39,456 nucleotides of DNA from a virus: the UHGV virus genome UHGV-0205415. The stretch is one strand, 5' to 3'. This document shows positions 8,926-9,249 of the stretch, piece after piece. Position 1 is the first letter of the stretch. Each line of letters starts with the position of its first letter. The notes beneath the pieces were generated by a model. It worked only from the letters and a program-made list of their open reading frames with translations, was not told the origin of the DNA and ran no database searches. Position numbers and translations under genes: made by a program.

Positions 8926-9249
8926 GTGTATACAACAGTTATCGTGATAGCTATCGCACTCATTGTGGTTCAGTACCAACTGGCATCTTTAAAACAAAAG
9001 ATATCTGACCTCAAGACTGAGAACGAAGCACTTAAAAACTCAATAAAAGATGAGAAGAACAAACTATCATTCACTATATCTGATATTGAGCAATCCATTG
9101 AAATTATTGAGAATAATATTAACAGACTAAAAAAAGAAGATATTCATGAAATCAATGACAATATCAAGGATTTGAAATCTTGGCTTAGGAATGTAGGACA
9201 AATCGCCACATCAACACGAGATAAGCTCAATCCATCCATGGATGATTAA
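8926..9249 (+). CDS. AT-rich gene encoding N-terminal transmembrane helix plus coiled-coil protein, in the position of P22 sieA
   Basis: ORF 8878..9249; GTG at 8926 five nt after AAGGAGG; hydrophobic VIVIAIALIVV then heptad-like charged repeats; markedly AT-rich. Confidence 0.5.
   Translation: MYTTVIVIAIALIVVQYQLASLKQKISDLKTENEALKNSIKDEKNKLSFTISDIEQSIEIIENNINRLKKEDIHEINDNIKDLKSWLRNVGQIATSTRDKLNPSMDD

Follow-up and report, generated by a model that had tools for sequence, protein, structure and literature searches.

The gene convergent with gene 16 in a P22-like phage genome is hkcB, an accessory gene of the sieA slot and a candidate block to DNA entry

The gene at 8926-9249 of the window, by which we mean the whole 39,456-nucleotide stretch analysed here (UHGV virus genome UHGV-0205415), is almost certainly hkcB, a real and selected accessory cassette of the slot in which P22 carries sieA. 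The main new result concerns the slot itself. The same leader stands before unrelated genes and the 3′ end of gene 16 lies on the other side; with these two as conserved anchors, the slot appears to act as a cassette site. We propose, tentatively and with somewhat less than even confidence, that HkcB is a candidate prophage-expressed inner-membrane block to DNA entry by superinfecting P22-like phages, that is, an alternative to SieA. A wider proposal is more doubtful: HkcB would be a new exclusion protein unrelated to SieA, and the leader and the gene 16 3′ end would delimit an exchange slot for at least 13 unrelated small envelope proteins, each tied to one gp16 type and many of them matched DNA-entry blockers.

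The window holds a P22-like (Lederbergvirus) genome whose late operon lies on the minus strand; the best overall match is coliphage CUS-3, which covers 68% of the first 25 kb at 96% identity. An immI-like region fills the space between gene 16 and the tailspike gene, and the relevant features are as follows:

4060-6057: tailspike gene
6683-7462 and 7500-8222: two antirepressor-like genes in the immI-like region
8212-8412, minus strand: arc-like gene
8413-8497: divergent regulatory region between the arc-like and mnt-like genes, with a perfect 16-bp palindrome, TTGGTTCTAGAACCAA, at 8414-8429
8498-8881, plus strand: Arc/Mnt-family "mnt-like" gene, 127 aa (Pfam Arc, E 1e-16; phrog_3178, E 3e-59)
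8895-8925, plus strand: slot leader TGGTATCCTGCGCAAAACTAAGGAGGTTGGT, which contains AAGGAGG at 8914-8920 and is common to P22 sieA, the hkcB genes of HK620 and epsilon34, and an ORF of E. coli S88
8926-9249, plus strand: hkcB coding sequence, 107 aa, GTG start and TAA stop (ORF and translation; full-length phrog_5962 match)
9250-11361, minus strand: gene 16, ejection/DNA-transfer protein (phrog_770, E 1e-216), convergent with hkcB
11361-12635: gene 20, ejection protein (ORFs and profile matches)
12645-13340: gene 7, ejection protein (ORFs and profile matches)
23600-24037: Rz (E 1.7e-71), adjoining the holin and endolysin genes

An earlier note on this DNA described a gene of 107 codons with an AAGGAGG-GTG start, and these coordinates are exact: 107 codons are followed by TAA, and the Shine-Dalgarno sequence lies 5 nt ahead of the GTG at 8926. 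The same note reported no family match, which is wrong. The gene is hkcB, and the ORF matches phrog_5962, a PHROG of "unknown function", with an E value of 1.4e-58 (residues 1-107 on profile positions 3-109). The name hkcB comes from the HK620 genome annotation of 2001, and the epsilon34 paper also lists the gene as of "unknown function". This means that hkcB is already catalogued as a small membrane-protein gene of P22-like phages whose function is uncharacterised; a literature search for experiments on hkcB found none in the papers covered. The product of epsilon34 gene 14 (gp14, ACF16640) is identical to the window protein (dN = dS = 0; DNA 99.8% identical), the CUS-3 gene (ABQ88389) is 98.8% identical in DNA and 97% in protein, and the HK620 protein (AAK28903) is 51% identical; more distant copies share 50-64% identity with the window protein. 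Practically all close relatives are 107 or 109 aa long. The hkcB genes of HK620, CUS-3 and epsilon34 share with the window gene the length, the N-terminal helix, the C-terminal motif and the abutment on gene 16, whereas the upstream neighbours differ: the Arc-family mnt-like gene in the window, a divergent lipoprotein gene in epsilon34, a YafO-family toxin gene in CUS-3 and the divergent hkcC in HK620.

The ORF is a real gene under purifying selection. Its dN/dS against distant relatives, measured where synonymous sites are near saturation, is 0.17-0.27, and constraint is strongest in the last 40 residues (pN 0.13-0.25 at pS 0.57-0.80). Such a high pS rules out recent recombination as the source of this C-terminal conservation. 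The gene had also been described as far more AT-rich in its codons than the flanking genes. This holds for overall composition, as the GC content is 33.3% against 46.9% for the window and falls in the lowest 0.85% of all 324-nt windows, but it does not hold at third codon positions, where hkcB (GC3 0.34) is no poorer in GC than gene 16 (0.32) and the tailspike gene (0.24). The amino-acid composition (GC2 0.24) accounts for much of the AT-richness. The recent horizontal acquisition suggested earlier is not supported, because the hkcB family has diverged deeply in place, to about 50% identity and further in two distant relatives (E 1.7e-15 and 2.6e-6), all at the same position.

The family has very few members. 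Among 5.8 billion clusters, a word-indexed search picked out 21, and an exhaustive profile search of 1.84 billion representatives gave 5 proteins at E below 1e-10, along with two more distant members that are credible, one of 104 and one of 96 aa. All members with a readable context are convergent with a gp16 homologue, including the distant members P0020, P0022 and P0024. About 3% of complete E. coli genomes carry an hkcB copy; a near-full match is present in 72 complete E. coli genomes, and about 80 further E. coli genomes match only the conserved 3′ third of the gene at 80-90% identity (HK620 type). Among the GTDB species-representative genomes the family was not found, as 0 of 54 pattern matches were confirmed by tblastn.

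The placement of the gene where P22 carries sieA is borne out by the DNA in front of it, since a leader of about 34 nt followed by GTG is common to hkcB and P22 sieA. The block GGTATCCTGC..AAAACTAAGGAGGTTGGTGTG is found before P22 sieA, HK620 hkcB and the window hkcB, and TGGTATCCTGC..AAAACTAAGGAGGTTGGT followed by GTG is the same before P22 sieA, the hkcB genes of HK620 and epsilon34, and one ORF of E. coli S88, which encodes an unrelated polytopic membrane protein of 109 aa. Ahead of hkcB, the HK620 sequence is a near-identical match in alignment to the P22 sequence ahead of sieA over the whole region, annotated putative PsieA included, and hkcB in HK620 takes the place of sieA precisely from the start codon on. 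A search of IMG/VR with the last 21 nt of the leader gave at least 119 usable, partly redundant loci, in which the ORFs that start at the leader GTG belong to at least 13 unrelated families; hkcB accounts for at least 20 of these loci and SieA type A for at least 11. Among the matches listed, the other families are mostly small membrane or signal-peptide proteins, together with one apparently soluble family of 140 aa. Two slot families whose architecture is like that of HkcB, the 109-aa "MLEIVV" and the 106-aa "MYISLS" proteins, were compared with HkcB as possible homologues and are analogues (hhalign probability 51% and 0.7%, respectively).

Across at least 60 distinct upstream variants, leader positions -34 to -24 are 85-98% conserved (at least 93% except for -24, at 85%), positions -23 and -22 vary, and conservation collapses beyond -35; from -21 onward the sequence is fixed by the 21-nt search pattern. 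The leader block may serve as a promoter element or as a recombination anchor, or it may be a ribosome-binding region and no more. Within it, TGGTATCCT resembles an extended -10 element and could act as one; the functional type B sieA of E. coli strain HS, which has a diverged copy of the slot leader, carries CGGTGTTCT at the place of TGGTATCCT. A published transcriptome exists for the LF82 prophage Gally, but the Gally slot holds another gene, of 161 aa, and the transcriptome therefore does not bear on hkcB.

At the other end of the slot, the stop codon of hkcB touches that of gene 16 with a gap of 0 nt in all 66 hkcB loci, so the convergent, abutting arrangement with the ejection-protein genes described earlier is confirmed. 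The same 66 loci all carry the same C-terminal tail type of gp16 (type 0), a tail type that is also found with two other cassettes. SieA type A is tied to a different gp16 type (12/12), with a 22-nt gap, and the other slot cassettes show similar one-to-one or few-to-one linkage. The gp16 proteins of the window and P22 are alike only in the N-terminal 150 or so residues. This linkage is notable because SieA blocks DNA injection by P22-like phages and its escape mutations fall in the C-terminal parts of both gp16 and gp20 (PMC10883804); the strict association of hkcB with one gp16 type may also be simple physical adjacency. tblastn and a search for the RYPxEA motif found no SieA within 6 kb of any hkcB. 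In phage Huey, which has the same gp16 tail type, the slot is empty and the tailspike gene follows directly. Huey grows without a slot gene, which means that hkcB is accessory and dispensable for lytic growth with this gp16 type.

P22 SieA resembles hkcB in its slot between genes 16 and 9, its convergence with gene 16, its leader with GTG and its AT-rich DNA (GC 33.7% for sieA and 33.3% for hkcB). Similarly, SieA begins with an uncharged or acidic N-terminus, followed by a transmembrane helix and a charged segment led by KRKR. However, SieA has 162 aa or more against 107 aa for HkcB, and it has three hydrophobic segments (type A) or four (types B and C), as described by Leavitt et al. 2024 (PMC10883804), against one in HkcB. 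The conserved cytoplasmic SieA motif FxRYPxEAxxFNK, searched as a regular expression over the six-frame translations of the hkcB loci, occurred only in the P22 locus. BLASTP of HkcB against P22 SieA gave a best segment of 18 aa (E 0.047 in a single comparison), and no SieA was recovered by the HkcB profile from the 1.84 billion representatives. As a possible SieA member, HkcB shares the slot position and differs in sequence, motif and helix number. The function of SieA is demonstrated, whereas HkcB is only a candidate for exclusion.

The protein itself divides into three parts:

8929-8991, plus strand: N-terminal transmembrane helix, residues 2-22 approximately (Kyte-Doolittle profile and K/R distribution)
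8992-9168, plus strand: charged amphipathic or coiled-coil rod, residues 23-81 approximately (continuous helix in the AlphaFold2 model, pLDDT 80-91)
9169-9237, plus strand: C-terminal motif, the most conserved segment, residues 82-104 (alignments and invariant residues)

The 19-residue Kyte-Doolittle mean reaches 2.2 at residues 4-22, and no second segment exceeds 0.32. The AlphaFold2 model, built from a 14-sequence alignment (the HK620 sequence was left out of the structure and profile runs), is a single helix over residues 2-101 with a mean pLDDT of 80. Hydrophobicity in HkcB has a period of 3.6 residues. Local 28-residue windows show a hydrophobic a/d occupancy of 0.5-0.88 with register shifts, and a single heptad register across the whole rod performs no better than shuffled sequences; taken together, this makes HkcB a segmented coiled coil or an amphipathic rod. 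The earlier description of one N-terminal transmembrane helix followed by a charged coiled coil is thus sound, as one hydrophobic segment is followed by an amphipathic, heptad-like helix. In all 17 members examined, there are no K/R residues before the hydrophobic helix and 2-4 in the 15 residues that follow it, which by the positive-inside rule predicts N-out/C-in, with the rod in the cytoplasm. The C-terminus carries the signature LKxW(L/V)xNVGxIAxST(R/K)DKxNPS, in which K84, W86, N89, V90, G91, A94, S96, D99, K100, P103 and S104 are invariant in the family; the core W-x-x-NVG is retained in the distant members P0022 and P0024.

Searches with the protein returned little beyond the coiled coil. 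Foldseek of the AlphaFold2 model against the PDB gave no match, and a sequence profile search of the PDB gave only designed coiled coils and vimentin. Pfam, NCBIfam and PADLOC searches returned only sub-threshold coiled-coil noise; in PADLOC-DB 2.0 the matches were of 11-16 bits, to coiled-coil parts of JetC, LmuB and PbeC. With HkcB and its C-terminal motif as queries, tblastn over the whole window detected neither a paralogue nor any mimicry of gp16, gp20 or gp7, and the best other match was out of frame (E 0.4). Rz-type i-spanins and FtsB/FtsL/DivIC proteins have the same general plan, an N-terminal anchor followed by a coiled coil in about 100 aa, but spanins and FtsB/FtsL are N-in/C-out, whereas HkcB is predicted to be N-out/C-in and has no basic residues before the helix. 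As an Rz-type i-spanin, HkcB gives a best spanin PHROG match of E 1.4e-3 (19.9 bits) and lies outside the lysis cassette; a search for an embedded o-spanin gene found no second plus-strand ORF of 30 aa or more inside 8926-9249. As an FtsB/FtsL/DivIC protein, it scores 21.5 bits with Pfam DivIC (cut-off 28.9) and 15-16 bits with NCBIfam FtsL (cut-offs 42-55).

The earlier note placed expression of the gene under the mnt-side promoter in the lysogen. In the window, the mnt-like gene ends 44 nt upstream of hkcB on the same strand with no terminator-like hairpin between them, and read-through from an mnt-side promoter into hkcB is therefore plausible. The arc-like/mnt-like divergent region contains a minus-strand promoter-like site (TTGACA-16-TAAATT), and by analogy with Pmnt/Pant of P22 we infer a plus-strand promoter there. 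The claim extends less well to the relatives, most of which have a divergent gene upstream of hkcB (a lipoprotein gene in 14 cases, a P63C-domain gene in 14 and hkcC in 9). Because the upstream gene is usually divergent, hkcB would generally need its own promoter near the leader, as sieA has; for sieA, 85 bp of upstream DNA suffice (PMC10883804). In the window, transcription would probably start at the mnt-side promoter, at one near the leader (within it or immediately before it), or at both. Since hkcB is read against the late operon, it would be made from the prophage.

We propose the following for HkcB as an exclusion factor. HkcB would be a bitopic inner-membrane protein of 107 aa with a very short N-terminus in the periplasm and a coiled-coil rod of about 85 residues in the cytoplasm, ending in the W-x-x-NVG-x-IA-x-STRDK motif. 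In the lysogen inner membrane, it may block the completion of DNA delivery by a superinfecting P22-like phage, and it could do so by disturbing the gp16/gp20 conduit or a host factor that the conduit needs. The common leader and the absence of SieA from all examined hkcB loci strengthen this hypothesis. T4 Imm, HK97 gp15 and lactococcal Sie2009 are comparable, as small membrane proteins of prophages that keep DNA from entering; they resemble HkcB in being small, membrane-anchored, made from the prophage or early and, as HkcB would be, active at the cytoplasmic membrane, and to our knowledge they have no detectable homology to it. The step from the same slot to the same function is one that we infer, and considering that the slot also holds soluble and secreted proteins, sharing the slot does not prove sharing the function. 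Two observations stand against exclusion: in neither sequence nor fold does HkcB resemble SieA or a known defence protein, and nearly the whole protein is predicted to be cytoplasmic, so that hardly any of it would reach the periplasm, the site of conduit assembly.

Only 22 of 66 P22-like phages, about a third, carry sieA (PMC10883804), and the slot content of the remainder is little explored. If hkcB and the other leader cassettes were exclusion factors, the slot would be a compact and readily recognised source of new DNA-entry blockers, and the cassette proteins would help to probe the passage of the gp7/gp20/gp16 conduit across the inner membrane, a poorly understood process. If HkcB is not an exclusion factor, it is an ordinary uncharacterised moron. 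We regard the slot architecture as a cheap, testable lead rather than a surprise.

HkcB might instead act on the host, as a lysogenic-conversion protein that modulates an envelope, division, secretion or stress-response complex and alters fitness, a reading that we consider unlikely, though a reasonable one. The gene has the orientation for prophage expression in the "ant moron", a region of rapid flux and diverse cargo (PMC2629481), and next to it relatives carry cargo such as a YafO-family toxin, a ClpP-like protease and a lipoprotein. An N-terminal anchor with a coiled coil is common among scaffolding proteins, and the weak DivIC/FtsL and PspA-like matches of HkcB are compatible with such a role, but these matches fall short of the curated cut-offs and look like an effect of coiled-coil composition. 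Moreover, the exhaustive profile search confines the family to one position beside the ejection-protein genes of one phage group, which argues for a role directed at phages.

A role directed at phages could also begin after entry, with HkcB as an abortive-infection effector or an infection-triggered, membrane-perturbing, toxin-like protein. Such a function would suit a small single-pass membrane protein in a defence-like prophage hotspot. In CUS-3 and UTI89, hkcB is the last gene of an operon with a YafO-family toxin, and at 9 loci it is preceded by a gene for a small coiled-coil protein with a C-terminal transmembrane helix and weak XhlA/holin-like matches. However, in most loci, including the window, hkcB stands alone, without a partner or antitoxin; PADLOC has no match for HkcB, and the sole slot protein characterised so far works at the entry step (PMC10883804). 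We consider a post-entry factor improbable.

Alternatively, HkcB could serve the lytic cycle, by handling type-0 gp16 in the cell that produces it or, late in infection, by stopping progeny from injecting into a cell that is already infected. The 66/66 linkage to one C-terminal gp16 type with stops at zero distance would fit, and for P22 sieA a rise in expression on induction is reported (PMC10883804); the resemblance to Rz-type spanins, with PHROG matches of E about 1e-3, is superficial. Nevertheless, hkcB runs antisense to the late operon, Huey grows on this gp16 tail type with its slot empty, tail type 0 occurs with two other cassettes, and the window has an Rz of its own while the topology predicted for HkcB is opposite to that of spanins. 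A lytic accessory is improbable as well.

Finally, it is highly improbable that the ORF is a chance reading frame in an AT-rich spacer, or that its only role is convergent or antisense transcription against the late operon, for although the DNA is AT-rich, the ORF is short, and convergent transcription into gene 16, where a hairpin lies at 9267-9303, could modulate late read-through, this is largely refuted by the selection analysis, with the dN/dS given above, the preserved length, the invariant C-terminal residues and the strong, conserved ribosome-binding site. Rfam at gathering thresholds reports nothing in the window. The hairpin itself, considered as a possible conserved terminator, lies just beyond the hkcB stop and has a z score of -2.5; 87% of cells pair, with only 2 double-sided changes and no U-run after it, and HK620 and Huey break 2-3 of its pairs.

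Besides hkcB (8926-9249, +), the 107-aa membrane/coiled-coil gene of the window, and the gene for SieA, at least 11 more unrelated cassette families start at the same 21-nt leader and GTG in IMG/VR (loci L077-L195; for example L078, L081, L089, L079, L124, L114, L088, L100 and L085). Among the loci listed, each of these further families is found with one or a few C-terminal types of gp16, the ejection protein whose gene borders the slot. The IMG/VR cassettes include the following:

Cassettes starting at the shared leader
129 aa, signal-peptide protein, at least 16 loci
109 aa, N-terminal transmembrane helix and coiled coil, at least 14 loci
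62 aa and 75 aa, membrane proteins
140 aa, soluble protein

The 109-aa protein shows no homology to hkcB despite such an architecture. The slot of the E. coli LF82 prophage Gally holds a 161-aa gene (L196:6855-7340). According to a preprint on this strain, induction by 7- to 50-fold occurs inside macrophages for the five prophage genes farthest to the right, among them mnt and the tailspike gene; this hints that host conditions may regulate the slot region.

The neighbors of hkcB also vary. In nine hkcB loci, a gene that is absent from the window lies directly upstream on the same strand, with a gap of 20-67 nt (for example, L010:5644-5979, L027:5308-5661 and L030:5487-5933). It encodes a small protein that combines a coiled coil with a transmembrane helix at its C-terminus. 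These proteins fall into phrog_6324, phrog_6136 and phrog_3556, and their XhlA/holin-like matches are weak and sub-threshold. Their architecture is that of hkcB mirrored; thus, they may act as partners of hkcB. In relatives, the stretch from mnt to the slot harbours defence-like cargo (L001:2991-3994, L076:2491-3494, L004:1747-2283 and L005:2401-2937). In CUS-3 and UTI89, a 199-aa gene and a YafO-family toxin gene lie just upstream of hkcB in one operon; in S88 and ETEC1721, a ClpP-like protease gene follows mnt, and S88 additionally encodes a YafO-family toxin on the opposite strand.

In the window itself, the immI-like region contains the following:

Features of the immI-like region
~6190-6447, +, Arc-family gene (Pfam Arc, E 4e-15), adjoining the tailspike gene and nested in a longer mechanical ORF (5794-6447)
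6462-6683, 72-aa ORF of phrog_4977
6683-7462 and 7500-8222, two antirepressor-like genes in tandem
8212-8412, -, Arc-family gene
8414-8429, perfect 16-bp palindrome TTGGTTCTAGAACCAA, in the divergent arc/mnt-like intergenic region
8498-8881, +, Arc-family gene

The presence of three Arc-family ribbon-helix-helix genes, together with the two tandem antirepressor-like genes and the phrog_4977 ORF, suggests that this region is duplicated or composite. The palindrome, a likely operator, and a promoter-like site on the minus strand (TTGACA-16-TAAATT) overlap.

At the other end of hkcB, a perfect 10-bp inverted repeat, CGCTTAGCGA ... TCGCTAAGCG (9267-9303), starts 18 nt beyond the stop, within the last codons of gene 16, and has a fold z-score of -2.5. 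In L074, the most distant relative, a perfect 11-bp stem of different sequence occupies the same place, but two to three pairs are broken in HK620 and Huey, and no U-run follows. It is possible that this repeat ends or stabilises the hkcB transcript.

Regarding gp16, BLASTP gives a full-length identity of 77% between the CUS-3 (L001:4341-6500) and HK620 (L003:4123-6291) proteins, a value that disagrees with the only 26% given in PMC10883804, where the partial SieA resistance of HK620 is ascribed to gp16 from that figure.
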